DNA of 64,000 nt from Candidatus Latescibacterota bacterium (GTDB lineage: Bacteria; Latescibacterota; UBA2968; UBA8231): the NCBI GenBank assembly GCA_965206595.1, contig OZ242214.1, forward strand, positions 928,001 through 992,000, in the 5' to 3' direction. Under the pieces are notes generated by a model, which saw nothing but the letters and a program-made list of their open reading frames with translations, did not search any database and was not told where the DNA came from. A program made the translations under genes and the position numbers. Shown here piece by piece: positions 5,009-22,588 of this stretch (the first letter of the stretch is position 1; each line of letters starts with the position of its first letter).

Positions 5009-5100
5009 ATACATCCCCTGCAGACTGCAGGTGTACACAAGTGTAGTAAATCGCACACTCTCTTGTAGTAACACACTTTCTCCCAAGGAGGATTGGAACC

Positions 5101-5976
5101 ATGCGAAAGCTACTTTTTCTGCCGCTGGCGGTGGCCATAATGGCCATACCGGCGTCTGCACACCAAGGCTCCGGCCCGTTTCTGGCCGTTCAGTTTCCCG
5201 ACGATGGGTTGCCCACGATCGATGGGGACATAGGCGAGTGGCAAGCGCTTCCCGATTATTTCCAGGTTCTGATCGAGGATGGTAATGGGCCCCCAGCCGA
5301 CTGGAACACTGAAATCGACAAGGCGGACCTGGACTTTGGTTATTGGGGGGGCTACAACGCCAGCAACGATAAGTTGTACGCGGCCGCCTGGGCGTTCGAC
5401 GACATTCACGTGAGAGATGACCCCGACGGCACGGACTGCGCCTGTAATGACGACAGCTACGAGTTCTTCACGGACGCCGATCACAGTGTCGACACTGGCG
5501 GGGACTACGGTATCGGCTGGTGGAATATCACGTGGCCTCCAGTGAATGGTGTGTCCCATGCTGGCGGCGGAGGACCCGGGTTCAATCATGATCCGGAGTA
5601 CTTGAATTACGCCGTCACTTTCGAGGGCGAGGAGTTCGGCGAGAGCACTTATTACTACGAAGTGGAATTCGCTCCTTTTGACGTATTGACGAAGGATGCC
5701 GACGGAAACGACAACGGCTCTGTCCAGTCCACGCTCGATCCGGGCGAGACCATCCATTGGGAGATGATCATGACGGACGACGACGCCGAATTGAGCGACC
5801 GAGCCGAGCAGTACCCCAATGGCCGGTGGAAGAACGACGGCTGGTGGTCCCTCGGAGTAGGAGCTGCCCACAGCGATACAGCTCCTGACTGGGAGCTGGA
5901 CACCGATGTCACCAGCGCCATGGCCACGGCGGTGGAGAGCAAGACCTGGGGCCGCTTGAAGTCCCGGTTTCGCTAG
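5101..5976 (+). CDS. Secreted CBM9/DOMON-like sugar-binding protein with C-terminal 'TAVESKTWGRLK' tail
   Basis: RBS AAGGAGG; signal peptide (..PASA/H); 'PTIDGDIGEW', 'DDSYEFFTDADHS', 'YEVEF' pattern resembling CBM9-like beta-sandwiches. Confidence 0.7.
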   Translation: MRKLLFLPLAVAIMAIPASAHQGSGPFLAVQFPDDGLPTIDGDIGEWQALPDYFQVLIEDGNGPPADWNTEIDKADLDFGYWGGYNASNDKLYAAAWAFDDIHVRDDPDGTDCACNDDSYEFFTDADHSVDTGGDYGIGWWNITWPPVNGVSHAGGGGPGFNHDPEYLNYAVTFEGEEFGESTYYYEVEFAPFDVLTKDADGNDNGSVQSTLDPGETIHWEMIMTDDDAELSDRAEQYPNGRWKNDGWWSLGVGAAHSDTAPDWELDTDVTSAMATAVESKTWGRLKSRFR

Positions 5977-6032
5977 TCTTCGGATTGAGGCCGATCAATA
6001 CGATCAGGCGCAATCTTTTTTTGAGGATACTG

Positions 6033-6072
6033 AACGAGGGAGGGGTTGCATTACCTCCCTCGTTTTTCTTTT
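6033..6072 (+). terminator. Rho-independent terminator/attenuator after the 5101 gene
   Basis: Stem AACGAGGGAGG (6033-6043) / CCTCCCTCGTT (6054-6064) followed by TTTCTTTT. Confidence 0.7.
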
Positions 6073-6103
6073 CACGCCCTGACAGAGAGTCGGGAGACCT
6101 CAT

Positions 6104-9100
6104 ATGTACGGATCTCCCTCAATGACGAGGGCACCCCTCTGGGCCGCGATCCTGCTGCTCTGGTCGAATCCGGGTTTTTCCCAGGAACAGCCGGGTTACC
6201 GGATCGATATCCAGAAGCGGCAGATCACCGTCAACACGGACAAGCAGTGGGGCCAGTGGCTCCTGGGGGATCTGGAGCAACCGCTCGATTCGGTCAGCCA
6301 GGACGTCCTGGAAGTGCGGATGAAGAACGGCGGCCGGGATGCCCTGATCGTCCCCCGCGAGTTCCGCAGGCAGGTGGACGCGCTGACCGATGCGCCCGGC
6401 TTCAGCCACGTCATCGACGCCAAGGACAAGGCGCAGTTCATCTCCGTCTTCGAGGAAGGGGGACCGCGCGCGCCCGGCGGCATCAAGAACGCCGGCTCCA
6501 ACCTGGCGCTGGCAGACGGTGCCATCGACCGGGGTGACGACCGGTTAGAGACCTACTGGGAGCCGGACCTGGACGAGCCGTCGTTCAAGTGGTGGATCGA
6601 ATTCGACATGGGCCGGTTGGTTTCGGCCGAAAAGATCATCCTGCGCTTCGTCGACGAAGAGCTGGGGGATCCGTTCCTGCAGTTCCGGGTTCTGGTCTCT
6701 ACCGGATTGCTCAAGTTTGACAGCAGTGTGCGGCCCCTGGACTACCGCACCGTCGGCGGCACCACCCGGGGGATTCGGGATCAGCGGGAGTTCACGTTCG
6801 ACCTCGAACCGGACGTGAAGGCCGACCCTGATTTCACCGGAACGCCCTTGCAGTACGTCCGCATCGTGGTGACCGACAGCAACCTGGACCGGGCCGAGGA
6901 AGTAACCCGGGAAGTTTATGAGAATGACCTGTCGCCGGAGAGCCGGGGGAGAATCGAGTACTATCTCAAGAGCTTTGACGGCGACGTGGTTCTAACGACG
7001 AGGGAAGCGTACGAGACCATCGAGACAGAAGAGCCCGACCGCCTGGGTCCGGTGCGCTACTATCGCAGGGAACGTCCGCGCCTGGCGGACGTGGAAGTTA
7101 TCACCGCAGGCGACAATATAGCTCTCGGGATTTTTGAAAGGGGTGGCAAACTCACCTACCAGGGCACGTCGCCGGGTATCCTGGCCAATGCTTTCAACGG
7201 CAGCTTCCTGGACGAATGGCGTGCCAGACTGGTCATGCAACCTGGACAATCCGGGACAAGCGACGGTGGCGGGGGGCCGCTCATCATCGATCTGGGGGCC
7301 TTGTTCTGGGTGGACGCCTTCCGCATCCTGGGCGACCCGACAGAGGCCCAATACCCACTCTGGGGGTGGACGGTCCGGGTTTCAGACGGTTCCACCGCCT
7401 CGGACGGTACCCCGATCTGGAACATGGTCTCGCCGCCTGAACGGGAACGCAACGCGACCACGAACAGGTTCATCTATGCGGAGGACCGTTTCGAACCGCT
7501 TCGAACCCGTTTCATCGAATTCGTCCACCTCGACGGCTCCAACACGGCGACGCCCACGCATGTCGGCGTGCGCGCAATGCAGGTGTTCGGCGAGGGCCGT
7601 GTCGCCGGGGTGGTTCTCACCTCCCCCCTGATCGAGTTCAAGGACAGGAGTAACCGGCGCCAGGCGCACGCCCTGACCCGGGTGGAATGGGTCGGCGAGA
7701 CCCCGCCCGGGACCCGTATCGAAGTCCGCACCCAGACCGGCAACGAGGTCATTCCGAAATGGCGGTTCTTCCTCACCAATGGAACAGAGGTGACCCGCGA
7801 CAACTACTGGAACAGGAGGACGAAACCAAAAGACAGAGGCGATTCCCTCGCGACCTTTTCCCAGGGGGTGGATTGGAGCGCCTGGAGCAGGGCCTACGAG
7901 CATTCCGGGGACCGATTTATTTCGCCCTCGCCGCGTCGGTTCCTCAGACTGCAGGCTACGCTGGATTCAGACCGGCCGGATGCCGTCGCCACCCTGGACT
8001 CGATCATCGTCCACTTCACCGATCCCTTCGCCAGCCAGGTCCTGGCGGAGGTAACCCCCCAGATCGATGTCGCCAGTGGCGTGCCGGACACCTTCTCCGT
8101 CTTCGTGCGGCCGATCTTCCGAGCCGACGAGCCGGATACCAGCACCCGTTTCGACGAAATACGGGTGCTGGCTTCGCATCGAACGGAAATGGAATTGATA
8201 GAGGTGCGTGTAGGCGGACAGGACGCGCTCCTGGCAGGCGAAGAAGCCGAAGTTGAAGAATTCGGAGACGATGGCCAGGGTGGTTTCGTCAATTCAGCGG
8301 GAGATCGCCTCGAGATCCTCTCGACCCGTGCCGACACCTTGTGGATAAGGCTGCCGGGCTTCGTGGACTACGACGCCGGCAGCCCCCCGGTTTACTACCG
8401 CATCGCAGTGGCGCGGGATGAAGCCCCGCTCGACAAATCCGGTGGCGTGCTCACCGAGGCGGCTTGGAGCCGGTTGCCGACGGAGCCGCTCAACGAGCAG
8501 GGCCGCATCGACTATTTCGAGGTCACGGCGACCGATCCCGAGACGGGCGCCCAGACTCTGCGCCTGGTGAATGAGGGCGACTACAACGAACTTCCCTTTG
8601 AATCCCAGGGGCCGGTGCGCTACTATCGCGCACTTTTCGATGGCGAAGAGGTGGCAATTGGCAACGACGGAGAGTCCTTGACCCGGACCAGCTACAACCA
8701 GCTGTCCAGCAGCCAGAAAGGGCCGGTCTTGCGCGAAGGCGAGGTGGTGGAGCTGCGCTTCCGTTCCCGCATCTTCGTGAGCGGCACGACCTTCTCCGCC
8801 GAGGTGGCCAACTCGAAGGAAGCTGACACGAGGATCCCCGAACTCTGGCAGAAAGCGGACCCCGGCAACGCCATGGAGGAGATCGACGGTCAAGGGACGG
8901 CCGTCATTACCCCCATAGGCGACCAGCCGGCGCTGTCCGCTCTGGAGATCGGGCCGAATCCCTTCACTCCCAACGGCGACGGCATCAACGACCGGGTGAG
9001 GCTCCTGCTTTCGGTGTCGAATGTCGATGCGCCCCGCCGGATCGAAGCCCGGTTCTTCACCCTGGCCGGCGTCGAGGTCGCCGTGGTTTCGAGTATGGCA

Positions 9101-9256
9101 GCGGGCGGAGAACGGGTGCTGGAATGGCATGGTCGCAGCGGTCGCGACAACGCCGGGGAGCTCGTGGCGCCCGGGCTCTATCTGTGCCGCGTTCACGTGG
9201 ACAGCGACGCGGGCTCTGGAAACACGCTGGTCCGCCTCGTCAGCCTGGCATTTTGA
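6104..9256 (+). CDS. Large secreted multidomain protein with discoidin-like modules and C-terminal FlgD-Ig/'gliding-motility CTD'-like domain (paralog 1)
   Basis: Signal peptide; 'WWIEFDMG', 'IIDLGALF'; 'WSAWS..Y...ISPSPRRFL'; C-terminal 'GPNPFTPNGDGIND...WHGR...GELVAPGLYL'. Confidence 0.75.
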   Translation: MYGSPSMTRAPLWAAILLLWSNPGFSQEQPGYRIDIQKRQITVNTDKQWGQWLLGDLEQPLDSVSQDVLEVRMKNGGRDALIVPREFRRQVDALTDAPGFSHVIDAKDKAQFISVFEEGGPRAPGGIKNAGSNLALADGAIDRGDDRLETYWEPDLDEPSFKWWIEFDMGRLVSAEKIILRFVDEELGDPFLQFRVLVSTGLLKFDSSVRPLDYRTVGGTTRGIRDQREFTFDLEPDVKADPDFTGTPLQYVRIVVTDSNLDRAEEVTREVYENDLSPESRGRIEYYLKSFDGDVVLTTREAYETIETEEPDRLGPVRYYRRERPRLADVEVITAGDNIALGIFERGGKLTYQGTSPGILANAFNGSFLDEWRARLVMQPGQSGTSDGGGGPLIIDLGALFWVDAFRILGDPTEAQYPLWGWTVRVSDGSTASDGTPIWNMVSPPERERNATTNRFIYAEDRFEPLRTRFIEFVHLDGSNTATPTHVGVRAMQVFGEGRVAGVVLTSPLIEFKDRSNRRQAHALTRVEWVGETPPGTRIEVRTQTGNEVIPKWRFFLTNGTEVTRDNYWNRRTKPKDRGDSLATFSQGVDWSAWSRAYEHSGDRFISPSPRRFLRLQATLDSDRPDAVATLDSIIVHFTDPFASQVLAEVTPQIDVASGVPDTFSVFVRPIFRADEPDTSTRFDEIRVLASHRTEMELIEVRVGGQDALLAGEEAEVEEFGDDGQGGFVNSAGDRLEILSTRADTLWIRLPGFVDYDAGSPPVYYRIAVARDEAPLDKSGGVLTEAAWSRLPTEPLNEQGRIDYFEVTATDPETGAQTLRLVNEGDYNELPFESQGPVRYYRALFDGEEVAIGNDGESLTRTSYNQLSSSQKGPVLREGEVVELRFRSRIFVSGTTFSAEVANSKEADTRIPELWQKADPGNAMEEIDGQGTAVITPIGDQPALSALEIGPNPFTPNGDGINDRVRLLLSVSNVDAPRRIEARFFTLAGVEVAVVSSMAAGGERVLEWHGRSGRDNAGELVAPGLYLCRVHVDSDAGSGNTLVRLVSLAF

Positions 9257-9272
9257 GAAGGAATCCACCACC

Positions 9273-11267
9273 ATGCGTGCCAGGGGTTTCGTCTACGGGT
9301 TGGCCGGCCTTCTCATCGGCCTCGCCGCCTCCACAAGCGTGCATTCGCGCAGCATGCTGGTGATCGGTGAACGCGACAATCCGTGGTCATCCGACCCCGG
9401 AATGTCGGTGGAGCACCGCACCTGGGGCGAGGCCAGGGCTGAAAGAGAGGAGGGCCTCTACCCGGACTACAACGAGACAGCCCTGGGAATCATCAATCTG
9501 GACACTTCCGCGACACACGTGATGCCGATCAGGGTGACCCCGGACTTCAATCTTTCCCTGGGCTATGAGGAGCGGGGAGGCTGGCAGCGAGAGCGGGTTT
9601 TTCAGCGCGTCCCGGGGTATTTCGAACGGGCTTTGGATGGAGACATCACCACCGTCTACAATTACCGGGGCGATTTCGGGGGCCCGGAGGGAACACCCCA
9701 GCCGACCGTGGACCTGGGAGGCATTTTCCCCATCAACCGGATCGTCTTCTACACCCACCCGGACTCCAGCGAAAAGTACGCCGATGTTTTCAGACTGTAC
9801 GTCGACGGGGCGCTGGTCCGCGAGGAGCTGGACAACAAGAAGGACAGCGTGGAAGTCACCTTTCCAATGCGGCACGGGCAAGTCGTCGCCATAGAGCCCA
9901 TAATCCGAAGAAACAAGGCTGGCATCTCGATCCCTCCCAAAACCTGGCAGCTCGCCGAGTTCGAGATCTACGGCGACGGCTACGTGCCCAAAGCCTCCTA
10001 TATCTCCGAGATCATCGACATTGAGCAGGTGGCGCCCCTGGGGTCCGGGGAGCAGGCCAGCTGGGGCCGGCTATACTGGACCGGCACCCGGGACCCGGGT
10101 GCCCGGACCGTCATCCGCACCCGCACCGGCCGCGCCGGGGACACGCCCAACAACGGCGATTTTCCCGACCCCAGTGTCTATTCCGTGTTCACCGGGCGGG
10201 GTGACGAATTGTCGACTTTGACGGTTGACGGCGAGCCATTGACCCTGGCCGACTACAGCAGTCTGGACTATGCCCCCCAGCAAGCTGCCATCACCTACGA
10301 TATCGAAAACTGGAGCTTCTGGTCGACGCCCTACGATTTCGACAAGGGCGCCGAGGGGGTGCCCGTGGTTTCGCCGGGGCCGCGGCGCTATATCCAGTTT
10401 CGCATCGACTTCTTTCCCACGATCACCGACGGCAGTCGCCTGGAGGCGATCGGGTTCGACTTTTCCAAGCCGCCCAGCGCCAGCAGGGCCGTCGCCGAGA
10501 TCTTCCCGAAGGAGGTGCCGGCGGCGGTCGACACCACCTTCACCTACACCCTCCTGCCCGAACTGGCAGACACCGATCGCGGCTTCGACAGCCTGGAGAT
10601 CGAGACATTCGTGGAGCCTTCGGCGGTGCGCCTGGTTCGGATTGACGGTGCGGGCACTGAAAAGATCATCTGCGAACCGTGCCTTCTTCACCCGGACGAC
10701 ACCCACCCGAACGCCGAGATCATGGACGATCGTCTCGTCGTGCACTTCGACACTCTCAAGGGAGTCGCCGATGCCGGGAAGCGGGTGCAGGTGGTGTTCG
10801 ACGCCTCCGTGGTGAAGTTCGGCACGGAGTTCAAGGGCCGCATATTCATCGATGGCAGCGACGAAGTGCGACAGCTTGTGGACGGCGGGGATGCCATCGA
10901 TCGCTACAGCGCAGGCGGGGTCGTGGTGACCATCCCCTTGAGCGAGGAGCTGATCAGTCAGGTGCGGGTGCAGCCGAGCCCGTTCACGCCCAACGGGGAT
11001 GGGATCAACGACGAGATTAAGCTCTCCTATGCGCTGCTCAACCTGACCGACGCAGCTGCCGCCGACGTGGCCATCTACGATCTGACCGGCCGCCGGGTGA
11101 GGCAGCTGCGAAGCGAATCGCTGGTCAGCGGCATTCACGGTGAGAATTGGAACGGGCGCGACGATGATGGCAGGCTCGCCCCTCCGGGAATTTACATCTA
11201 CCGGATATCGATCGAGACGGACGAGAGGAATGAAGACCATAGCGGCATCGTCTACGTGGCCTACTAG
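9273..11267 (+). CDS. Secreted FlgD-Ig-tailed protein (paralog 2)
   Basis: Start reassigned to ATG 9273 (MRARGFVYGLAGLLIGLAASTSVHS, RBS AAGGA); 'VDLGGIFPINRIVFY', 'WSFWSTPY', 'SPGPRRYIQ', 'PSPFTPNGDGIND...WNGRDDDGRLAPPGIY'. Confidence 0.75.
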   Translation: MRARGFVYGLAGLLIGLAASTSVHSRSMLVIGERDNPWSSDPGMSVEHRTWGEARAEREEGLYPDYNETALGIINLDTSATHVMPIRVTPDFNLSLGYEERGGWQRERVFQRVPGYFERALDGDITTVYNYRGDFGGPEGTPQPTVDLGGIFPINRIVFYTHPDSSEKYADVFRLYVDGALVREELDNKKDSVEVTFPMRHGQVVAIEPIIRRNKAGISIPPKTWQLAEFEIYGDGYVPKASYISEIIDIEQVAPLGSGEQASWGRLYWTGTRDPGARTVIRTRTGRAGDTPNNGDFPDPSVYSVFTGRGDELSTLTVDGEPLTLADYSSLDYAPQQAAITYDIENWSFWSTPYDFDKGAEGVPVVSPGPRRYIQFRIDFFPTITDGSRLEAIGFDFSKPPSASRAVAEIFPKEVPAAVDTTFTYTLLPELADTDRGFDSLEIETFVEPSAVRLVRIDGAGTEKIICEPCLLHPDDTHPNAEIMDDRLVVHFDTLKGVADAGKRVQVVFDASVVKFGTEFKGRIFIDGSDEVRQLVDGGDAIDRYSAGGVVVTIPLSEELISQVRVQPSPFTPNGDGINDEIKLSYALLNLTDAAAADVAIYDLTGRRVRQLRSESLVSGIHGENWNGRDDDGRLAPPGIYIYRISIETDERNEDHSGIVYVAY

Positions 11268-13071
11268 GAGCTCGTGGCGGACTCCCCGTCACCGCAGTAT
11301 CGCGGGCTGCTGCTTCATCGGGGTGACCGTTTTCTTCGTCCACGGGAGCCTGGCGCTGGACACCCTCGTCGGCGGCGGAGTGGAGAACACCTGGTCCGAT
11401 TTCGGCACTGCCCCCGGGAACGTCATCGATTTCGCAACGGAGCCCGGCTGGATCGCGCCCATCCAGATCGACCCCGAGGTCAACCTCATCGAGCAGATCC
11501 GCGCCAGGGGGGGAACAGTGGATATCGATTCTCCGAACAGTCCGGTCCGCAGGACCCAGGGCGACCAGGTGCTGCAGGATGCCCTGGACAACATCATGAA
11601 CGGCTCGGTTTCCGAGGTGTACGACCGCAAGATCGCCAACTCGACCTTCGGGGAGCACATCGACATCGATCTGGGTGCTCCCCTCGGCATGGATCGCATC
11701 GTCTTCTATCCCAGCTCCCTCTTTCCCCGGGAGTTTCTGAGGGCCTTCTACATCCAGGTCAACGACGGCAAGAGCAATCTCGCCGAGTCCGGCAACCCCG
11801 AATGGAACACGATCGGCAGATTCCACGAACGGCAGAATACCAGGACCCGGGCCGAGATGCGGATACCGCTCCAGTTCGTCCGCTACCTGCGCCTGACATC
11901 CCAGTACCACGGGGGATTCGAGATCGACGAGATCGAGCTTTACGGTCGCGGCTACGTGTCGGACGGCAGCTACCTGTCCAATCCCTTCGACCTGGGGGAG
12001 CAGGGCTCACTGTGGGGCCGGATAAACTGGTCTGCCGCGGCCATCGGCGATCCCTTTCGTTCCGGCATTACCGTGCGCACCCGAAGCGGCCGGGATGCGC
12101 AGGATTGGAGCCCCTGGTCGGAGCCTTATCGGCTGGCCGAAGACCGCGGTATCCAGATCACCTCACCGGCCCCCCGTCGGTTCTTTCAATTCGAGATCCG
12201 CTTTGCCAGCGAGGACCTGGAGGCGGCACACAAGGTCGATTCCCTCTCCTTCGAGCACTCGCCGCCGGTCGCCCAGGAACTCGTCGCGGAGATTTTCCCG
12301 CGTCAGGCGCAAATCGGCGAGGGCAAGGAATTCGTCTATGCCGTGCGGGCCTTCGGGCCTTCCGACAGGGGCTTCGACACCTTCGAGGTCCGGACCTCGG
12401 CCCCCATCGAGCGCCTCGAAGAGATTAAGATCCTCAGTCAGGAGGGGGATCTGCTCCTGAACAAACAGGGTGCAGATGCGGACGAACACCTGGTGTCCCC
12501 GCATCCTTTCAAGGTGCGTTTTCCCCCCATCACGGAAGATGGTTCCGTGCTGAAACTCCGCTTCGTCACATCGGTTCTGCGCTACGGCATCGTCTTCGAC
12601 GGATGGGGGTTGAACGAGGGATCCGACGAGTTGCCGCAGCCTGCGGTTCCCGGCAACGCCGTGGATCTCAGCGGCGACTTTCCCGGGCTGAACCTCCTGG
12701 ATGAAGACAAGCGCTCGAACCTGACCGTTCTCACCGACATCGAGGGGGTGGCTCTTGTGGACGCCGTGGAGGCTGTGCCCAACCCCTTCACCCCCAACGG
12801 CGACGGCATCAACGACAGCGCCGAGATCCGCTCCGACGTCTTCAAGCTCACCAAGGCGACGCCAGTCGAGGTCGTCGTCTACGATCTTTCCGGCCGCCGC
12901 ATCGCCGTCCTGTTCGCGGGCGAGATCGAGAGCGGCCGCCACTCCGTACCGTGGGACGGCACCTACGCTGACGATCGGCTCGTGCCGCCCGGACTCTATC
13001 TGCTCAAGCTCGAGGTAAAAGCGGACGTCAAATCAGAAGAGGTCCTGGGAACGGTCGTCGTCGTCTATTGA
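11230..13071 (+). CDS. Secreted FlgD-Ig-tailed protein (paralog 3); start uncertain (11230 or 11323)
   Basis: 'IDLGAPLGMDRIVFY', 'EIELYGRGY', 'WSPWSEPY', 'SPAPRRFFQ', 'PNPFTPNGDGIND...WDGT...VPPGLY'. Confidence 0.72.
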   Translation: MKTIAASSTWPTRSSWRTPRHRSIAGCCFIGVTVFFVHGSLALDTLVGGGVENTWSDFGTAPGNVIDFATEPGWIAPIQIDPEVNLIEQIRARGGTVDIDSPNSPVRRTQGDQVLQDALDNIMNGSVSEVYDRKIANSTFGEHIDIDLGAPLGMDRIVFYPSSLFPREFLRAFYIQVNDGKSNLAESGNPEWNTIGRFHERQNTRTRAEMRIPLQFVRYLRLTSQYHGGFEIDEIELYGRGYVSDGSYLSNPFDLGEQGSLWGRINWSAAAIGDPFRSGITVRTRSGRDAQDWSPWSEPYRLAEDRGIQITSPAPRRFFQFEIRFASEDLEAAHKVDSLSFEHSPPVAQELVAEIFPRQAQIGEGKEFVYAVRAFGPSDRGFDTFEVRTSAPIERLEEIKILSQEGDLLLNKQGADADEHLVSPHPFKVRFPPITEDGSVLKLRFVTSVLRYGIVFDGWGLNEGSDELPQPAVPGNAVDLSGDFPGLNLLDEDKRSNLTVLTDIEGVALVDAVEAVPNPFTPNGDGINDSAEIRSDVFKLTKATPVEVVVYDLSGRRIAVLFAGEIESGRHSVPWDGTYADDRLVPPGLYLLKLEVKADVKSEEVLGTVVVVY

Positions 13072-13135
13072 CGAAAACCTCCATCGCCGGTCGTGCACAG
13101 CAGAGTTTGTTAGGGTATCCAGAGGAGGGTTTGTA

Positions 13136-15856
13136 GTGAAAAGACCGGCTTTTTCCAACCGTGCTGCTCTGTTCGCCTTGACCGTCATCGCGGGTTCCGT
13201 TCCCGTTCTCGCGCAGCAGGACTATGGCTCGCGCCTGGGCACGCGCAAGGCGGACGTCTGGAGCTACCAACCCCAGGGGACCAGTGTGCTCACGGGCACT
13301 CTCGATCCGGCCATGCGCAAATGGTACGTGCCTGGCGAGCTCTACCAGGAATTCCGCTGGCGCCAGTGGGAGTACACCAACTACGCCCGCGAACCCTTCC
13401 AACGCTACGTCGACATCAATCTCGAGGGCGACTATTTCTACGATCTCTACGGCAATTACATCTCCAAAGGCTGGCTTATCTACAACCACAGCCAGAATCA
13501 ACCCCGGGCCCAGTTGGGAAATTCACTCTTCAAGGACGACAGGTTCAAAAATTGGTTCTCCGGTGTCCTGATCGCATCCGACCACAAGGGCCAGTACCAC
13601 ACGTCGTTGAGCATCGGGAGCTCACTGCGCACCGTTCTCACGCCGATGACCTTTTCCAAGCCCGACTTCGACGGTCTGCAATGGGACTTCGCCTCCGACA
13701 AGTACGAAGCCACCGTCCTCTATTCCCGCATCAACCTGCCTGGCGGCGAGAAGACCCCGACGGCTATCGAGCTGACCAACAACACCACCCTGTTCGGCGG
13801 CCGGGTGACCGCCCAGGTGGGGGATTTCATCAAGCTCGGCGCCAATTTGGTCAACGCGCATCAGTCCCACACCGACCTGGAGAGTTTCGAAGGCAGTCTC
13901 ATCAAGGGGGAATTGACCCAGGATCAGAACGGGTCCCCGGTCGAGTGGGTCGAGCTCATCCTGAGGGACGACTCGCCGGAAGACGGCGAGGGAGGGACCT
14001 CCTTTTTCGAGGGAGGCTCCGATCTCGTCATCACCTACATCGACGGAGAGCAGGAGACCGCCAGGCAGATCGGTTTCGAACCGGTGGTCCAGGGAGGGTT
14101 CGAGCGCACCGGCTTCAGGGCCGCGGACGGCAGTGAAGAGATCAGCGTGAGATACGATTTCGACAGCACCGGCCCCGCAGGTTTCGTGGACAATGCCCGC
14201 GGAGACAAATCGGAGATCGAACGGGTCCGCTTTCAACTGCCGGTCGGCAACGACTACCAGGTCTGGGTGAATTCCAATCGCCAGACCACCCATTTGGGCG
14301 GGGGGAGCGCGACTGCCGATCAGACCACGCCCCTGCTCGTGGCCCGGGCCGAGGGCAACGTCCAGGACAACTCCAACCTGCGCCTGCTCAGCTTCGATTA
14401 CGGCCTGCCAACGGGTACCCAGGTCGTCGGCGCTACTATCGAGATGACGGATGTGTTCGGCGTCAGCGTCTATGGCGAGTACGACGTGTCCTACAACTAC
14501 AGGATGTACCCCAACGCCAACCTGATAACCCATGACTCCTTCTCCGGCGTCAGGGGTGATCGCCGCGCCGACGCCTGGATGGTGAACCTTTCCAAACAGG
14601 CCTACCCATTTTTCCTCTTTGGTGAGGCCTTCAGCATGGATCACGATTACTCCACCAGCACGGTCACCACGAGCACCACGCCGCGGACGGGGTTCGTCGA
14701 CTACGGGAACCCGCGCTTCTTCTATGAATTCGTCGACGACAACGACGACCAGGACCGGATCCCCGACCTCGCGCGCAAAGGAGCGGGCAACGGCGACTTC
14801 GACATATTCCCCGGATGGGACGAAAACAACGACTTCATCTCCGACTTCAACCAGAACGACAACCGCCGCAGCGCACGACGCAACGAGTTTCCGGACTACG
14901 AAGAGCCCTTTCTCCGCTTCAATGTCGATCGACCGGAGTTCCTCTTCGGTCCCGACATGAACAACAACGGCTGGATCGACAGGTTCGAGAACGACAACGA
15001 GCCCGATTATCCCTACCGGCGGGATCACCGCGGCTACAACGTATATGCCGGCGCCAACATCACCCCGGAAATTCGAGCGATCGTCGGCCGCATGGACGAG
15101 CGCCTCCTCTCGGAAGACCGGCACAACGAGACCAACTACCTGCTCGCCACTTTCGACCGGGACTATCCGGGGTTCGGTCGTCTGCGCGTTTACGACATGG
15201 TCAAGCGCGCCCAGGACAACATTCGCGAGAACCTGCTGCAGTGGGCTTACCAGACCGCCGAGTCCGAAGGGCAACCAGTCAACATCACCGACCCCCTCCT
15301 GCTCGAGGACGGCTGGCACAACAGCCTGTGGTTGAATTTCGACTACACCGGGGTGCGGAGCCTGCGTTTCATCAACAAGGTCAAGTACGACCTGACCCAC
15401 ACCCAGCTCGGCAAGGAGGATCGCAGAATTCGCGGCCAGCTGCAGAACGAGCATTTCTTCGGCGTCATCAGCAAGGTCGGCTACGAGTTCAGCCTGGGCC
15501 GGATGAAACTGGAGCCGCGATGGAAGAGCGAGTACCGGAACCAGACGCGCGATCATGCCGCGGTCGGTGAGCGCGAAGAGCTCACGGAGCTGTTCTCCGT
15601 GCTCGCTCGCTTCCCCATCCTGAGGAGCTCCTATGTCGAGGCGGGGGTGGAGTACATCCAGTTCAGGGATCTGCGGCAGGATCTCAACGATCTGAACAAT
15701 CGGGTCCTCGCCGTGCAGTTCACCAACACCAGGGATTATCTGGGCTACAAACTGAGCACCCAGATGGGGGTCAAGTTCGACCGGCGCGACCCCGAAAACG
15801 GGCCGGCCAGGAGCCTGCAGAGCAGCTTCATCAGCGTTTTCGCCGGGCTGGAGTGA
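13136..15856 (+). CDS. 906-aa secreted/outer-membrane protein, probable beta-barrel with Asp/Asn-rich Ca-binding-like loops
   Basis: RBS GAGGAGG, GTG start, signal peptide (..PVLA/Q); amphipathic beta-strand pattern in the C-terminal third; DDNDDQD, DENNDFISDFNQNDN and DMNNNGWID motifs. Confidence 0.65.
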   Translation: MKRPAFSNRAALFALTVIAGSVPVLAQQDYGSRLGTRKADVWSYQPQGTSVLTGTLDPAMRKWYVPGELYQEFRWRQWEYTNYAREPFQRYVDINLEGDYFYDLYGNYISKGWLIYNHSQNQPRAQLGNSLFKDDRFKNWFSGVLIASDHKGQYHTSLSIGSSLRTVLTPMTFSKPDFDGLQWDFASDKYEATVLYSRINLPGGEKTPTAIELTNNTTLFGGRVTAQVGDFIKLGANLVNAHQSHTDLESFEGSLIKGELTQDQNGSPVEWVELILRDDSPEDGEGGTSFFEGGSDLVITYIDGEQETARQIGFEPVVQGGFERTGFRAADGSEEISVRYDFDSTGPAGFVDNARGDKSEIERVRFQLPVGNDYQVWVNSNRQTTHLGGGSATADQTTPLLVARAEGNVQDNSNLRLLSFDYGLPTGTQVVGATIEMTDVFGVSVYGEYDVSYNYRMYPNANLITHDSFSGVRGDRRADAWMVNLSKQAYPFFLFGEAFSMDHDYSTSTVTTSTTPRTGFVDYGNPRFFYEFVDDNDDQDRIPDLARKGAGNGDFDIFPGWDENNDFISDFNQNDNRRSARRNEFPDYEEPFLRFNVDRPEFLFGPDMNNNGWIDRFENDNEPDYPYRRDHRGYNVYAGANITPEIRAIVGRMDERLLSEDRHNETNYLLATFDRDYPGFGRLRVYDMVKRAQDNIRENLLQWAYQTAESEGQPVNITDPLLLEDGWHNSLWLNFDYTGVRSLRFINKVKYDLTHTQLGKEDRRIRGQLQNEHFFGVISKVGYEFSLGRMKLEPRWKSEYRNQTRDHAAVGEREELTELFSVLARFPILRSSYVEAGVEYIQFRDLRQDLNDLNNRVLAVQFTNTRDYLGYKLSTQMGVKFDRRDPENGPARSLQSSFISVFAGLE

Positions 15857-15868
15857 ATTGAGGGATAT

Positions 15869-18169
15869 TTGATTCGAAGAATAGTTCCGGGTTGTCTCCT
15901 CTTCGTCGTCGCCTGCGCCGACACCCCTCCCGGCGAACAGGCCGACGCCCCCTCGGCGGTCATTGCCCGGGTCGTTGAGGAGTCCATCGACAGGCGCGAA
16001 GTCGAGGAGTTCGCCGCTTCGCTGTTGCCGGGATTGCGCACTGAGAAGGGCGGGGATGCCGCCCGACGCGACTACCTGCAGACGCTCATCGACGAAAAGC
16101 TGCTGGTGCTCGAAGCCCGCCGTCGGGGAATCGACACCACCAGCGCGTTTCAGGCCGGCTACCAGTACGCGGTTCGAAGGCACGTAGTCGATCAGTACGA
16201 GAGACGCCACCTCCACCCTCTCGTCAGCATCACCGGGCAGGAGGTGCGGGCGCGTCTCGCCAGGGACGGACTCGACCGCGAGAGGCTCCTGAGCTGGATA
16301 GTTGTGGAGACCGAAGAGCAGGCCGCCCGTCTTCGCCGGCGCCTGGAAGAGGGGGCCGATTTCGCCGAGCTGGCGCGGCTCCACTCGATCGATGAGCGGT
16401 TTGTCGACACGGGTGGGGAAGTCGGTTTTGTCGACGGATCCGTGGCTGGCCGGGCGGGTATTCCCGTCGAGCTTTTCCGCGAGCTGGAATCGGGCGAAGT
16501 CTCGGAGCCGCTGCCATCGCGCGGAGCTTATCTCCTGGTCCGCTTTACCCGGGAGCGGGAAGAGATCTCACCCAGGAACCGCCGCATGGCGCGCGCCGAT
16601 CTCGGGAAGGAGAAACTGGCGGTCGAAAGGCGGGCGCTGGTCGAGGAATTGGCCTACGAATCAGGCCTTTCGCTGAAACCGGAGGGACTGGCGATCCTGG
16701 TGGGCAAGGAGCCTGGTGGAACGTCGCGGCCACAGCTCACGCCTGCCGAGGCGGCCGCCACGCTCTTTACCTACGAAGGGGGAGAAATAACCGTCGGTGA
16801 CTACGACTGGGCGTTTCGCCATCTCGGACGCAAGCCCGGGCTTGGGGACAGTGTCGCCGTGGTGGAGGCCGCCCGGGTCTGGGTACTGCCCGACATCATG
16901 ATCTGGGAGGCGGCTCGGAAGCTGGCCTATCACGAGACCCCCTCAGTGCTCGAATGGAAAAAACGCAAGGAAGTCGAGCTCCTGCTGATGGCTCTGCGCC
17001 GGACGGTCCGCGACCAGGTGGAGGTCAGCGAGGAGGATGCCAGGCAGTTCTATCTCGATCACTCCGGCCTGTTCGTCGAGTCCTCCCAGATCTGGATCCA
17101 GGAGATTCTCGTGGATGATCCGGACGCGGCCACCGTCGTGCGTCAACGGTTGGAGTCGGGAGAACCGTTCGAGGACCTGGCACATCTGACCGAGCGATCG
17201 GGTACCGAGGACGGGAATCTGCACTTGCACGGGCATCAGCGGGCCCGGTACGGGGAGCTGGTGGACCGGGCGCTCGCCGCGGATGTGGGTCAGTTCGTCG
17301 GTCCAGTGCAAGTCCCGCAGGGCTATTCCGTCTTCCGTGTGCAGGACAGGAGGGTGGGCCAATTGCAACCTTTCGCCGCGGCTGAAAGAAGGGCGACGGC
17401 CTCCCTTCGGGTGATGAGAGAGGAAGAGCTGTTCAACAGCCTGGTCGCCGAAGTGCGGGAGAAGTATGCGGATCGGGTGCGAATCTTCGAGCCGGAACTC
17501 GGCGCCATACAGCTTCCCGAGGATGACTTGAGGCAGCTGGCAGCGCGGGACAGCGTCTACGACCTGGGCATCGCCCACGCTCAGAAGGGCCGCACAGCGG
17601 AGGCTATCGAGGCTTTTCGGACGGCCATCCGCATCGATTCGACGTTTCTCTCTTCCTACCATGACCTCGCGCTCGCGCACGCGGCCGAGGGAGACTTCGA
17701 GGCCGCGTACGCCGAAATGGAAAACGCCCTTCGCGTGGGCGGGGAAGGATCCGCCTACACGTACCGCCTGTTGGCCTTTTTCCATTCCAATCAGGGACGC
17801 TACGAAGAGGCGGAAAAAGCCCTGTGGCAGGCCACCGAAGTCGATTCGAACGGCGAGGAAGCGCATTACGAGCTCGGAGTCCTGTACAACAGACAAGGTC
17901 GTCCCGGGGAGGCTGAAAGTTCGTTCATGCAGGCTTTGAGGCTCGATCCAGCTTACAAGGAAGTGTGGAATGAGCTCGGCGGACTCTATACGAACGCAGG
18001 ACGCCATGACGAAGCGGACAGGGCCTTGAGGCGGGCCCTTGAAATCGATTCGGGCTATGCGCAGGCCTACTACAATCTGTCCCAACTGCGCTCGGCGCAG
18101 GGCCAGGCGGAGGAGGCAACGGCCCTGCTAAAGCGTTTCGAGAGCCTGTCCGGCAGCCCGGCAAAGTAA
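15869..18169 (+). CDS. PpiC/parvulin-type peptidyl-prolyl isomerase (SurA/PrsA-like) lipoprotein with C-terminal TPR repeats
   Basis: Lipobox-like 'FVVAC'; two rotamase modules ('EGADFAELARLHSID..GGEVG', 'SGEPFEDLA'); several TPR-like repeats at the C-terminus. Confidence 0.8.
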   Translation: MIRRIVPGCLLFVVACADTPPGEQADAPSAVIARVVEESIDRREVEEFAASLLPGLRTEKGGDAARRDYLQTLIDEKLLVLEARRRGIDTTSAFQAGYQYAVRRHVVDQYERRHLHPLVSITGQEVRARLARDGLDRERLLSWIVVETEEQAARLRRRLEEGADFAELARLHSIDERFVDTGGEVGFVDGSVAGRAGIPVELFRELESGEVSEPLPSRGAYLLVRFTREREEISPRNRRMARADLGKEKLAVERRALVEELAYESGLSLKPEGLAILVGKEPGGTSRPQLTPAEAAATLFTYEGGEITVGDYDWAFRHLGRKPGLGDSVAVVEAARVWVLPDIMIWEAARKLAYHETPSVLEWKKRKEVELLLMALRRTVRDQVEVSEEDARQFYLDHSGLFVESSQIWIQEILVDDPDAATVVRQRLESGEPFEDLAHLTERSGTEDGNLHLHGHQRARYGELVDRALAADVGQFVGPVQVPQGYSVFRVQDRRVGQLQPFAAAERRATASLRVMREEELFNSLVAEVREKYADRVRIFEPELGAIQLPEDDLRQLAARDSVYDLGIAHAQKGRTAEAIEAFRTAIRIDSTFLSSYHDLALAHAAEGDFEAAYAEMENALRVGGEGSAYTYRLLAFFHSNQGRYEEAEKALWQATEVDSNGEEAHYELGVLYNRQGRPGEAESSFMQALRLDPAYKEVWNELGGLYTNAGRHDEADRALRRALEIDSGYAQAYYNLSQLRSAQGQAEEATALLKRFESLSGSPAK

Positions 18170-18187
18170 AAAACGGAGGATCGTGCC

Positions 18188-18580
18188 ATGAGAGTGCTGA
18201 TTTTCCTGACCGTGCTGCTCTCGTCGTTCGTTTTTTCCGACTGTGGCGGAAGAAAGTTGGTCGACAGCGGTGGAGGGGGTGACGACGAAATCCTGTTTTT
18301 GAACGAAACCCCCGAGAACGTCTACCGGATCACGGTGGTGGGTACCACTGCGGACTTCACCCTCCGAGCATCTTCCCGCAAGGCCGTAAAGGTTCCGGTG
18401 GAAGAAGACCATCCTGGCTTCAACGTCAATATCGAGAAGATCGAGGGCGAGGTCGGTGAGGCGCGAAAAACGCTGTTCGGCGTCAAGCCGGGTGAAACGG
18501 TTCGCATTTCCTTCGAGGCGGGCACCACGAGCGGAGGGGAGCTGGGTGCGGGTCTGGTTTCCATCGAGGTCGTGTTCTGA
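18188..18580 (+). CDS. Small probable lipoprotein, beta-rich
   Basis: RBS GGAGG; hydrophobic signal ending in Cys ('FVFSDC'); 130 aa. Confidence 0.6.
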   Translation: MRVLIFLTVLLSSFVFSDCGGRKLVDSGGGGDDEILFLNETPENVYRITVVGTTADFTLRASSRKAVKVPVEEDHPGFNVNIEKIEGEVGEARKTLFGVKPGETVRISFEAGTTSGGELGAGLVSIEVVF

Positions 18581-18593
18581 CAAAGCGGCACTA

Positions 18594-20882
18594 GTGCCGA
18601 GGGACACTGACAACACACACTCCGCGAACCTGGTCGTCCGACTGACCAGGAGGGCGAAACGGCTTTACCAGGAGTGCTCGCGCCGAACGTGGTGCGGTGC
18701 CGTGCTGCTGTTCTCGTTCGCCCTCCTCTGGCGCGCGCTCTACCTCTACCAGATGGCGGCTCGGAGTCCATTCTTCGATGCCCCCATGGTGGATGCACAG
18801 ACCTATTCCCAGCAAGCGGAACAGCTCGCCGCGACGTTCAGCCTGGGAGACGGGCCGTTCACATGGCCGCCGCTCTATCCCGCCTTCCTGGGCATTCTCT
18901 ACTGGCTCTTCGGGGCTGATTTTTACGCCTGCCGCCTGATCCAGTTCAGCCTGGGCGCGCTCAGCGTCGTACTCCTCTACCTGATCGGCCGGCGGGTATT
19001 TTCCCCGGGCATCGGTCTGGCCGCCGGGGCCGTGGCCGCGGTGTACGGACCGCTGATCTACTTCGAGGGGGAACTTCTGCCCCCGGTGCTGGCCATTATG
19101 CTCAATTCGAGCCTCGTACTCTTTCTCCTTCGCGCAGGTACCGTCAGACATCCCTGGTCCTGTCTTGCTGCCGGACTCCTGCTGGGCGTGGCCGGCCTCG
19201 CCGTTGCCCATGTGTTCCTCTTCGGCCTGGGGGTGGCCGGATGGATTTTCCGGCGCAGAGATATGGGGCTGCCTGCCCGGCTCGGCCGCGTCCTGTTGCT
19301 GGCCCTGGGGATGCTTCTCGTCATCGGCGGCACGACGTGGCGAAACTACCACAAGGGTGGCGACCTGGTCCTGCTCTCCTCGGACTCGGGCTTGAATTTT
19401 TATCTGGGCAACAACCCGGATCAGGCGCGAACGGTCAGGTTGGGACCGGGCGCGGAGTGGGATGAGCTGGTCCGGCAGCCGGTCCGGCAGGGACTGGAAA
19501 AACCCTCGGAACAATCGGCCTATTTCTGGCGGGCGGCGGCCTCGTTCGTCAGAGAGGAGCCGGCAGCCTGTCTGCGGTCTCTGGCCACGAAAGCGTTCGA
19601 CTTCTGGCAGGGAGGCGAAATCGGGCGTCACACCGATATCTATTTTGCCCGCGCCCATTCCGCGTTGCTGGCCGGGCTGGTGTGGCATCACTGGCTCGCC
19701 TTCCCGTTCGGCATCGTTGGCCCGTTGGCGCTGGTCGGACTGCTGCTGGCCATCGTCGAAAGACGAGCGGGTCTGATCGTATTGTTTGTCCTGTGTTATG
19801 CAGGAGCGGTCGTCGCCTTCTCGGTGACCGCCCGCTACCGTCTCCCCGCGGTGCCGATGTTGATCCTGCTGGCCTGCTACGCGGGCGCGTGGTTGAAGGA
19901 CCAGGTGTCGGCCAGGCAGTGGCGGAACGTGTTGCCGGCGGCAGGTCTCCTCCTCCTTGTCGCGTGGCCGCTGAACGCAAGAGCCATCACGCTGGCGGAC
20001 GACGCCCAGGACCGGTATTACGCCGGACTGGCCTACGCCCGCAAAGGTATGCCGGCGAGGGCGACCTTGGAGCTGCGAAGAGCCCTCGACTTGGATGAAG
20101 GTCACTACGATGCACGCCTGAAGTTGGGTGAGCTCCTGGTCGATCTCGACAACCCCGCTGAGGCTCGAGAACAATTCCGGCTGCTGGCACAACGTTTTCC
20201 GCTGCGGGCGGATCCCCGGCGCAATCTGGCCAATCTCTATCTCGAGGAGAAGAGAATCGAAGAGGCCGTGGTCCTCTTCGAGGAGATCGTCGACCTGGAA
20301 CCGACAGCTGCCCGCTCACACTTTGGCTTGGCCGGGGCCCTGCGTCTGGCGGGACGCCTGGAGGCAGCCAGGGACTCCTACCTGAAGGCCGTGGAACTGG
20401 ACCCCGATCATTTTGAAGCCGGGTATCATCTGGCAGTCCTCTACCAGCAGGAGGGACGGTGGCGGGAAGCGGAGCACGTGTACCTGCTGCTCCTGCAGCA
20501 GCAGCCCGGGCATGACGACGTGCGCAACAATCTGGGATACAGCTACCTGAGACGGCGGGAATTCCCGGCGGCTGCTGCGGAGTTTTCCCATGTTCTCGAC
20601 AGCAACCCGGATCACGTGCTTGCTCGCCGGAATCTGGCCATTGCCTACGAAGGGCTGGAACGCAACCGCGAGGCGGTGCGGGAGTACGAGCGTCTCATCC
20701 AGCAGGGGGAAGAGATCGAGGTGTACAATCATCTGAGCCGTCTCTACGGCAAGATGGGGCAACCGGAAAAAGCCGAGGAGGCACGGCAGAAGCACCGGAT
20801 GGTGCTGCGGCGCGAGGAAATTTTCGGAGAGTTGCGCGAGCTCGCAGAGCAGATGTTCCAGGGAGCTCCAGGAGCCCGATGA
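18594..20882 (+). CDS. GT-C fold (ArnT/PMT-like, GT39/GT83-type) membrane glycosyltransferase with C-terminal TPR repeats
   Basis: 'DAQTY', 'PPLYPAFLG', 'GLNFYLGNNP', 'RYRLP' motifs, many TMs, then TPRs. Start moved to GTG 18594 to avoid overlap with the upstream gene. Confidence 0.75.
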   Translation: MPRDTDNTHSANLVVRLTRRAKRLYQECSRRTWCGAVLLFSFALLWRALYLYQMAARSPFFDAPMVDAQTYSQQAEQLAATFSLGDGPFTWPPLYPAFLGILYWLFGADFYACRLIQFSLGALSVVLLYLIGRRVFSPGIGLAAGAVAAVYGPLIYFEGELLPPVLAIMLNSSLVLFLLRAGTVRHPWSCLAAGLLLGVAGLAVAHVFLFGLGVAGWIFRRRDMGLPARLGRVLLLALGMLLVIGGTTWRNYHKGGDLVLLSSDSGLNFYLGNNPDQARTVRLGPGAEWDELVRQPVRQGLEKPSEQSAYFWRAAASFVREEPAACLRSLATKAFDFWQGGEIGRHTDIYFARAHSALLAGLVWHHWLAFPFGIVGPLALVGLLLAIVERRAGLIVLFVLCYAGAVVAFSVTARYRLPAVPMLILLACYAGAWLKDQVSARQWRNVLPAAGLLLLVAWPLNARAITLADDAQDRYYAGLAYARKGMPARATLELRRALDLDEGHYDARLKLGELLVDLDNPAEAREQFRLLAQRFPLRADPRRNLANLYLEEKRIEEAVVLFEEIVDLEPTAARSHFGLAGALRLAGRLEAARDSYLKAVELDPDHFEAGYHLAVLYQQEGRWREAEHVYLLLLQQQPGHDDVRNNLGYSYLRRREFPAAAAEFSHVLDSNPDHVLARRNLAIAYEGLERNREAVREYERLIQQGEEIEVYNHLSRLYGKMGQPEKAEEARQKHRMVLRREEIFGELRELAEQMFQGAPGAR

Positions 20883-21010
20883 AACTGAATCGCTCCGGTT
20901 CAGGGATTCCTTCCTCAGGGATGGCGCCGGAAGCCAGATCGCCGGGTGCGCGAAGGAAGATGTCCCTTGACAGCGCAGACAGGTGGAAACCCTGCAACAG
21001 GCAGTTGACA

Positions 21011-22588
21011 ATGAAAGCTACCGCCCGTTTGGCACACAGACTCTTTACCGGATTGTTGGGACTTGCCCTGAGCACAGGCCTGCAGGCCCAAGCCAAGCCT
21101 CAGCGAACAACCCAGGAAATTGCGGCCCTCAAGAAACAGTACTGCGGTGGCTGCCATTTCCCCCCTCCGGCGAATCTAATGCCTAAAAAAGACTGGCCCA
21201 GAGTGATTAAAGCCATGCAGGACCTGACCATAGAGCGCGATGGCCGCCCTTTCTTCCCCGACGATGTGCTCAGGGATCTTACCGCTTTCTACTACGACAG
21301 TGCTCCGGCCGAGCTGCCCAGGCTGCCCTATTTCGACAACACTGACAGTCCAGTTGCTTTCCACATGAGAGAGATCGGCGAGAAATCGGTGTTGCCATCG
21401 GTGATCAAAATCAGCAGCACCGATTTGAACAGCGACGACAAATTGGAATTTCTGCTGTGTGACGGAGAGAGCAATCAGGTAAACCTGTTGCAACAGGTCG
21501 AGGGCCAATGGCAGGAATCGAAACTGGCGGATGTGGCTATTCCAGTGAACACCGAGGTGGTGGACTATGACGCGGATGGCGACAAGGATATCCTGGTGGC
21601 GGCGTTGGGTTATTACCCCCCATCAGACGAGCTGGCCGGCAGGGTGGTGGTATTGGAACAGACCAGGCTCGATCAATTTGAGAAAAAGATCCTTCTGGAG
21701 GGGGTGGGTCGCATCACCGATGTTCGCAGCGCTGATATAGACAAGGACGGCGACCTGGATATTGCCGTGGCAATTTTCGGCGGCAATACTGTGGGAGAAC
21801 TGGCCTGGCTGGAAAATCGCGGCGAGGGCCAGTATCAAAAACATACCATGGTGAATACTCGCGGCGGCTTGAACCTCACGCCCACAGACCTCAACGGCGA
21901 TGACATGGTGGACTTTGTCAGTTTTGTCTCCCAGGAGTATGAGGCCATAATCGGCATCGTCAATCTGGGCGATGGCAAGTTTAAATCCGACACCTTGACT
22001 CAAGCCCCGCATCCCATGTTCGGCTCCACCGGCATGAGCCTGGCCGACCTGGACAGTGACGGCGATCAGGATATCGTCTTTACCAACGGCGACAACTACG
22101 ATCTGCAGTGGGACCCCAAACCGTATCACGGGGTGCAGTGGCTGGAAAATCTCGGCAGCTTGAAGTTGACGGGAGCCGCCGGCGCCGGCTCCGAGGGCGA
22201 GGTGTTCTACGCTATTCAGTATCACGAAATCGGCCGCTTTTACGGTGCCGTGGATGCGGTGGTTGGAGATTTGGACAAGGATGGGGATATGGACATTGTC
22301 GCCAGCAGCTGGTCCAATTACTGGGAGGATCCCAGGCGCCAGAGCCTGATCTGGTTTGAAAATGACGGCTCGCAGAGGTTCAAGCGCCACAATATTGCCA
22401 AGCGTCCGCAAAGTGTAGTTTCACTGGACCTGCGTGATATCAACAATGACGAGCGGCTGGATATTATTGCCGGGGTATTCCGGGTAGACCTGCTGATGAA
22501 TGTGTTGAGGGATCCGAAAAATGGTTTGGGTGAGGAAACAGGCCCCAAAACACGGGTGATTGTCTTGGAAAACAAACCAGCGAGATAA
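21011..22588 (+). CDS. Secreted protein with N-terminal c-type heme motif and FG-GAP/VCBS beta-propeller repeats
   Basis: Signal peptide from ATG 21011; CGGCH (CxxCH); repeated D-x-D-x-D-G-D-x-D-I motifs. Confidence 0.8.
   Translation: MKATARLAHRLFTGLLGLALSTGLQAQAKPQRTTQEIAALKKQYCGGCHFPPPANLMPKKDWPRVIKAMQDLTIERDGRPFFPDDVLRDLTAFYYDSAPAELPRLPYFDNTDSPVAFHMREIGEKSVLPSVIKISSTDLNSDDKLEFLLCDGESNQVNLLQQVEGQWQESKLADVAIPVNTEVVDYDADGDKDILVAALGYYPPSDELAGRVVVLEQTRLDQFEKKILLEGVGRITDVRSADIDKDGDLDIAVAIFGGNTVGELAWLENRGEGQYQKHTMVNTRGGLNLTPTDLNGDDMVDFVSFVSQEYEAIIGIVNLGDGKFKSDTLTQAPHPMFGSTGMSLADLDSDGDQDIVFTNGDNYDLQWDPKPYHGVQWLENLGSLKLTGAAGAGSEGEVFYAIQYHEIGRFYGAVDAVVGDLDKDGDMDIVASSWSNYWEDPRRQSLIWFENDGSQRFKRHNIAKRPQSVVSLDLRDINNDERLDIIAGVFRVDLLMNVLRDPKNGLGEETGPKTRVIVLENKPAR

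Follow-up and report, generated by a model that had tools for sequence, protein, structure and literature searches.

What does a very large predicted outer-membrane barrel of no described family do beside three secreted proteins that end in sorting tails like those of type IX secretion (the T9SS)? The question is raised by positions 5101-20882 of a 64,000-nucleotide stretch of Candidatus Latescibacterota bacterium (GCA_965206595.1, contig OZ242214.1, positions 928,001 to 992,000 of the forward strand; hereafter the window), where eight closely spaced genes, A to H, share one orientation, all of them found where a preliminary description of this DNA had placed them. The cassette that they represent is real, conserved, and undescribed in the literature searched: as supposed there, no named system with this gene set turned up, and queries joining Latescibacter with type IX secretion or T9SS, and DUF4159 with ExbD, returned nothing, subscription papers being mostly outside their reach. 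As to function, we lean tentatively towards B, C, and D being lectin lids, exported by the T9SS, on a new Ton-energised uptake barrel (E), the whole working in the manner of SusC/SusD. A wider proposal, to which we attach more doubt, is a separate Latescibacterota utilisome comprising new giant barrels, type IX-exported lectin caps, a dedicated ExbB/ExbD motor, and dozens of substrate-specific copies per genome.

A recurrent cassette around a large predicted barrel

We evaluated synteny at 75 loci, obtained from the best 80 of 414 genome matches to E and biased toward the E subfamily of the window; 56 of these loci had complete 10-kb flanks, and a partner was counted when it lay ≤10 kb from E. 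Across the 56, E was accompanied by B in 55, C in 54, D in 54, F in 52, H in 49, and A in 45, with all six partner families present in 38. The gene set was conserved, the point that the preliminary description had proposed to check for its "FlgD triplet-barrel-PPIase" order, but the exact order A-B-C-D-E-F-H was kept in just 4 of the 75 loci, the same set being elsewhere shuffled and split over both strands. Directly upstream of E stood B in 52 of the 75 loci and D in 12. The genes A to F and H, seven in all, make up a cassette that recurs across Latescibacterota in reshuffled copies. The eighth, G (18188-18580, +), a small predicted lipoprotein, is accessory, with a single copy in the source genome and a presence in 5 of the 75 loci. 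A ninth gene had been missed: I (20879-22588, +) encodes an FG-GAP repeat protein (FG-GAP_3), overlaps the stop codon of H, and is a possible accessory member, with close homologues in loci L011 and L013 and weak FG-GAP homologues in 19 more of the 75.

The cassette is also multi-copy, the other point put forward for checking. The source genome (G000; 7.05 Mb, 92.9% complete) holds 32 E-family genes, 31 of them ≤10 kb from a cargo gene, and 57 proteins carrying both the cargo body common to B, C, and D and their type-B-like tail, 35 of which are encoded ≤10 kb from a barrel. The E family has no described member, yet together with the cargo family it makes up ~3% of this genome, and it occurs in 69 of 121 Latescibacterota genomes, each at least 80% complete, that we profiled. 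Mirror-tree comparison of E with B, C, D, and A gave rho values of 0.92-0.98 (permutation maximum 0.38; first 41-45 loci), a correlation confounded by kinship that we set aside as proof of co-evolution.

E itself (13136-15856, +; 906 residues) is a predicted large outer-membrane beta-barrel into which a beta domain is inserted and which carries a long loop rich in Asp/Asn. It had no match in Pfam, NCBIfam, or the PDB sequences (best profile E-value 0.021) and 763 matches at an E-value of 0.001 or better in a 50%-cluster library. The AlphaFold2 model, built on a 133-sequence alignment (pLDDT 86.7, pTM 0.87), is a barrel and not a soluble protein, in line with the preliminary description. It has 22-24 barrel strands counted from secondary structure, a total that hinges on the reading of model residues 45-125, and hydrophobic residues alternate in many of them. 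The beta domain is inserted at model residues 245-396. A loop of 125 residues, 20 of them aspartates, probably binds Ca2+ and holds many of the most conserved columns. The last strand of outer-membrane barrels usually ends in the periplasm; if this is so for E, strand counting would place both the insert and the acidic loop on the outward face.

Comparison of folds singled out no specific relative. The top Foldseek matches to the model were all outer-membrane barrels (MtrB, SlpA, LptD, and FimD; TM ≤0.30), SlpA being second at TM 0.26 and a root-mean-square deviation (rmsd) of 17.6, and VIA-align returned a flat list of barrels (best Z 14.0, rmsd 10.9 over 247 residues). The lowest rmsd was that of the FimD usher translocation domain (3.6 over 251 residues, Z 11.1, 7% identity), tied with generic barrels; FadL/PorV-type barrels were not among the fold matches listed. 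Weak SlpA_C scores occurred in 3 of 8 distant E homologues (17-22 bits vs a cut-off of 35), and an Atlas lead to DUF6029 (0.88, 158 shared features) lay under the threshold of the tool. On the evidence of the model, E is a predicted barrel without a specific known relative. Sequence does not place it in the PorP, TonB-receptor, or usher families: PF11751/TIGR03519 (PorP/SprF) gave no match, nor did any Plug, TonB-receptor barrel, or usher family of Pfam and NCBIfam. The early characterization as a barrel unlike PorP also held in size, the model of E being far larger than PorP (906 residues vs ~300, ~24 strands vs 14).

Predicted sorting tails, type IX secretion genes and a small barrel

B (6104-9256, +) is a secreted protein of a long subfamily with predicted F5/8-type C (CBM32-like) domain(s), beta domains, and a type-B-like C-terminal domain (CTD), and the secreted paralogues C (9273-11267, +) and D (11230-13071, +) each appear to join a CBM32-like body to such a CTD. 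The start given for D is the likelier one, an ATG at 11230 that creates a 38-nucleotide overlap with C; the longest open reading frame is 11140-13071. An FTPNGDGIND-type domain closes all three proteins, as first described. On their likeness to T9SS type-B CTDs, the models gave a mixed result: C and D passed the Pfam models CHU_C (41.4 and 31.5, cut-off 27) and FlgD_ig (29.8 and 32.8), B scored below the CHU_C cut-off (19.4, E-value 1.2e-3), and none of the three passed TIGR04131 (see below). The F5_F8_type_C match of B (E-value 1.2e-4) was likewise below its Pfam cut-off. A profile of the cargo family matched CBM32/F5-8C structures in the PDB (best 7jnb, E-value 1.5e-9, plus further CBM32 chains); at this family-profile level, with single proteins below the Pfam cut-off, B, C, and D are predicted to carry a discoidin-fold (CBM32-like) domain, and the architecture of D rests on profiles.

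The tails were compared through a profile in which the 56 seeds, ending in an aromatic or similar residue, scored ≥88, B 75, and type-A-like tails, with their basic end motif, ≤61; seed scores are high by construction, and the informative part is the gap to the type-A-like tails. The B, C, and D tails are by this profile type-B-like, distinct from those of the 75 type-A-like tail proteins of the source genome. A third tail, of the AVE-x-x-[ST]WG-x-[IL]K type, ends 96 open reading frames of that genome, A among them, vs 1 in a shifted control, and is possibly a third sorting signal. A linker motif common to this tail and the type-A tails was unsupported (10 of 75 type-A, 4 of 57 type-B).

The source genome encodes SprA (614.9, cut-off 200), PorU (617.6, cut-off 420), and PorV (43.8, cut-off 27), with porV adjoining porU. 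These genes, together with the separate small barrel described below, contradict the notion of a self-contained module. A screen for sprA, porKLMN, and porV had been suggested as well: SprA and PorV were found, but the models of GldM (PF12080, TIGR03517) and GldN (PF19841), like those of PorP, had no match in this genome, with silent controls, and PorK and PorL were not searched for. PF11751 gave weak matches in 27 of the 121 genomes, 25 of them in one family (f2), all marginal at 20-28 bits. SprA exceeded its cut-off in 119 of the 121, whereas the T9SS is called exclusive to Bacteroidota in PMC12618676. The result would be a T9SS apparently without its known motor, SprA being present and GldM and GldN undetected in the source genome. 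Near sister cassettes, we further observed sprA ~5 kb away on the same strand, with lptF/G-like genes between (G000:6656657-6686000; L104, L105), and a second PorU-like protein of 1841 residues (254 bits, below the cut-off; G000:5014598-5020123, L110) beside the cassette at 4996305-5011761.

According to PMC12618676, a PorP/SprF shuttle, in most cases from a neighboring gene, is required by type-B cargo, and orphan cargo proteins can make common use of a single one; PMC9143113 has type-B cargo stay bound to the 14-stranded PorP/SprF. No PorP/SprF-like small barrel was found in the window or in any of the 75 related loci. A candidate lies at G000:222100-223035 (PorV_fam 71.1, cut-off 90), the one clear homologue in the source genome of small barrels from distant loci. 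In four genomes of other families (L128, L131, L132, and L133), such homologues (E-values 1e-15 to 1e-17) stand between cargo and E, the order being cargo, a ~310-residue barrel, then two or three E genes. The small barrels of these distant loci score to PorV_fam, FadL, or PorP_SprF, and that of L128 passes PorP_SprF (24.3 vs 22.3). This order, and the small barrel of the source genome, match the cargo-then-shuttle order and the shared orphan shuttle of PMC12618676. The simplest export route is likely SprA plus the small barrel, which would leave E with another job; the idea that E replaces an absent PorP was dropped once the small barrel was found. The candidate belongs to an operon (L148, G000:220227-228894) of a CBM9-like tailed protein, a TonB-like protein, the PorV/PorP-family barrel, a giant TPR protein, ExbB, ExbD, and DUF4159, with no E barrel, and L148 is a candidate supplier of both shuttle and motor for the cassette.

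Possible energised uptake and its alternatives

In the reading that we favor, the type-B-like tail would route B, C, and D through SprA, with the small PorV/PorP-family barrel as a shared shuttle, while F would fold and H glycosylate the cassette proteins in the periplasm. The predicted sugar-binding proteins B, C, and D would end up docked on E as lids, the insert and acidic loop of E pointing outward, and E would open under a Ton-type force from ExbB/ExbD and TonB-like proteins encoded elsewhere, passing oligosaccharides; A may be a further binding protein of the uptake unit. Our confidence falls from export by SprA to the roles of F and H, to docking on E, and to Ton-driven uptake.

What points past export alone, towards energised transport, is a genomic tie between the barrel family and ExbB/ExbD/TonB-like genes, which the preliminary description had missed. 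Next after the E genes of L132 and L133 come genes for a giant TPR protein, DUF5683, a lipoprotein, ExbB, two ExbD, DUF4159, and an AgmX/PglI-type TonB-C protein, and this set is partly present beside E at L140. In the source genome, barrels at three loci have TPR, DUF5683, DUF4159, and TonB-like genes as neighbors, and two of the three loci also have ExbB or ExbD nearby. The AgmX/PglI C-terminal model, with a cut-off of 40, gives 61 for the TonB-like proteins encoded beside related barrels. Across the phylum profile, E was found in 69 genomes, the type-B-like tail in 62, and the TonB-C (AgmX/PglI) family in 68, while none of the three was found in the remaining 52, all of which have SprA. Cargo-body matches in 24 of these 52 were rejected: the 5 inspected were an unrelated protein without a tail, propeller-like by eye, that matched through one short common segment.

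Barrels also occur apart from cargo. One genome (G010) has 68 E matches, some of them fragments (several split or truncated), vs 2 tails and 1 TonB-like gene, and another (G033) shows 17 E matches and, at the threshold applied, no tail. From the numbers in G010, the barrel is not a one-to-one PorP replacement. In nine G010 windows, hand-picked from this single genome and without a background count, most barrels had no type-B cargo close by, and their neighbors included a rhamnosidase, an esterase-like gene, DUF6785/6784, and type-A cargo. Such cargo-free barrels seem to speak against a one-to-one anchor or usher and would fit substrate-specific channels. A ~650-residue type-A cargo with two FlgD_ig stretches recurs beside motor-linked and solitary barrels (L150:806-2803, L153:246-2156, L138, L145, L146), and is possibly their lid protein.

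Several observations weigh against uptake through E with type IX-exported lids. The TIGR04131 cut-off of 35 is missed by C (26.7) and D (25.8), and B passes neither TIGR04131 nor CHU_C. TonB-dependent transporters, 22-stranded barrels with a plug at the N-terminus, fit E at only Z 8.7-9.7 (rmsd 7-11) vs the best Z of 14.0. In the source genome, 22 of the 57 cargo genes lie >10 kb from any E. The 52 negative genomes make up four families (f2, f3, f4, and f8) and, being kin, reduce the phylum profile to few independent losses. The sugar-gene surroundings of solitary barrels come from the narrow G010 sample described above, and the cassette includes no hydrolase. Motor genes are mostly missing from window-clade loci: of the 75, 9 have TonB-like genes and 3 ExbB/ExbD, and none has the small barrel or the giant TPR. 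In a tree of 78 E sequences (midpoint root), the E of the window belongs to a clade (support 1.0) separate from the motor-linked barrels, so that any energising of this E would act in trans. Modeling of a complex between E (model residues 45-880) and the D tail, which scored 0.00 in two runs with controls likewise not folded, counts neither for nor against.

The strongest alternative, unlikely but to be taken seriously, is that E is a terminal anchor or display platform holding T9SS-exported B, C, and D as a glycosylated adhesive or protective coat, with no import. Nearly every E gene of the source genome has cargo nearby, and the two families take a sizeable share of that genome, but barrels far outnumber tails in G010 and G033. 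Bacteroidota type-B cargo remains on its barrel (PMC9143113), but a PorP-like barrel for anchoring already exists here. The window clade has no motor genes in cis, whereas E co-distributes with the TonB-C family across genomes. The S-layer porin SlpA, second in Foldseek and echoed by the SlpA_C scores of distant E homologues, is in line with such a platform, but both matches are weak; foldase and GT-C enzyme as core members suit a glycosylated coat.

We consider it improbable that E is instead a usher-like export or assembly pore that threads or polymerises B, C, and D with F as chaperone, independently of SprA, which is the preliminary reading in its strong form. Three ancient paralogous subunits, a barrel, and a chaperone do recur as a set, but the cargo tail is T9SS-like, SprA, PorU, and PorV are present, and four distant genomes have a PorP-like gene immediately after that for the cargo. 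FimD gave the lowest-rmsd fold match and E has an inserted beta domain, but generic barrels tie with that match, whose identity is 7%, and E is often found without cargo. Least probable of all is a mechanical role instead of import, with E and its cargo at the outer-membrane side of a machine that a motor drives (for Agl-Glt-like adhesion, sensing of surfaces, or moving surface polymers): AgmX/PglI-type TonB-like proteins do occur with giant TPR and ExbB/ExbD, like the core complex of unknown function in PMC3169522, and two of three tandem barrel positions form supported clades (1.0) spanning distant families, but none of the Glt proteins reaches its cut-off (GltG, 42 vs 650) and barrels multiply without the motor (68 vs 1 TonB-like gene in G010), which fits many substrates better than one machine.

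If true, the utilisome proposed above would offer the first example of transporter lids provided by T9SS cargo, the T9SS in question seemingly lacking the PorLM motor. Should E import glycans, it would represent an independent solution to the problem solved by SusC/SusD and could explain the feeding of these uncultured bacteria. Two questions can now be put to the test: what energises a T9SS that has no detectable PorM/PorN, and where its type-B cargo finally resides.

Other genes of the locus and known systems

A (5101-5976, +) is a secreted CBM9-like protein with a short [ST]WG-x-[IL]K tail at its C-terminus. It has no Pfam or NCBIfam match of its own; its CBM9-like character, proposed from the outset, is supported by its nearest Atlas clusters, which carry CBM9_1 in 13%, 37%, and 100% of members, and by 2 of 3 scanned paralogues passing the CBM9_1 cut-off. 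F (15869-18169, +) is a PpiC/SurA-type foldase lipoprotein with a lipobox-like motif and a C-terminal TPR extension. The Rotamase, Rotamase_2, and TPR domains found by Pfam agree with the PpiC-TPR chaperone first described, but the TPR tail is not common to its paralogues in the genome, which align just to ~residue 545. H (~18630-20882, +) is a GT-C glycosyltransferase by its PMT_2 domain (28.7 vs a cut-off of 26.1) in a predicted multi-pass membrane protein with TPRs and 8 hydrophobic segments in a crude scan. Its longest open reading frame is 18456-20882, and its start is probably near 18630 because conservation begins only from ~residue 50.

The GC content of the A to H reading frames matches that of the window. 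In four RNA runs of a sponge-metagenome study, contigs at ≥88% likeness cover pieces of A through F, one spanning 5086-6324 across the A-B junction. With no cover at 18722-20563 they say nothing on H, and they carry no strand or level information and may include DNA; they lend weak support to transcription of the cassette in a close relative. Genes for a DUF6785/DUF6784 membrane protein (2848-4755, -) and a GHL10 hydrolase-like protein (1154-2800, -) diverge from the cassette promoter and could provide the inner-membrane step of uptake. DUF6785/6784 genes also lie beside barrels in L138 and probably in L139, in L149, and at G000:4967825, these last three all being probable cases. Downstream, an HTTM/VKGC-like gene (22672-24063, -) in a low-GC stretch (0.49) is followed by a reading frame (24493-25968, +) that we take to resemble an IS transposase. 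The E orthologue of locus L014 has an in-frame TAG near its start (L014:10396-10400).

Comparison with known systems shows partial likeness to each. The FimD chaperone-usher system resembles the cassette in the size of its barrel (24 strands, with an inserted plug), in the beta domain set into it, in having several beta-rich proteins that are paralogues, and in a chaperone gene, but here there is no usher or pilin match, F is PpiC-type rather than PapD-type, and the partners bear a T9SS-like tail. The Deinococcus S-layer porin SlpA is a large barrel, second among the Foldseek matches to E and weakly detected through SlpA_C in distant homologues, but at TM 0.26, rmsd 17.6, and Pfam scores far under cut-off. 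The Agl-Glt core and non-TonB force transducers, related motor cores of unknown function described in PMC3169522 and PMC12204202, which do not cover this system, share with the sister loci a giant TPR, ExbB/TolQ, paired ExbD/TolR, and AgmX/PglI-type TonB-C, whereas these motor genes are absent from the window cassette and no Glt equivalog passes; PMC12204202 mentions neither Latescibacter* nor DUF4159. With T9SS type-B and PorP/SprF of Bacteroidota (PMC12618676, PMC9143113), the cassette shares a CHU_C-type tail, and its genome SprA, PorU, and PorV; in distant families, a ~310-residue PorV/PorP-family gene lies directly 3' of the cargo gene. It differs in that the adjacent barrel E has ~24 strands rather than 14, the tail scores below TIGR04131 and has an aromatic last residue, GldM and GldN were not found in the source genome (controls silent), and foldase, GT-C, and CBM9-like partners are core.

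SusC/SusD utilisomes comprise many paralogous loci of barrel and binding protein per genome, with SusD lipoproteins as lids. E has no TonB-dependent receptor or Plug match, its putative lids are T9SS-tailed CBM32-like proteins, and the cassette is free of hydrolases; what it has in common with SusC/SusD and Ton are the many loci of barrel and binding protein, the predicted carbohydrate-binding domains, and the linkage of the barrel family to ExbB/ExbD/TonB-like genes.

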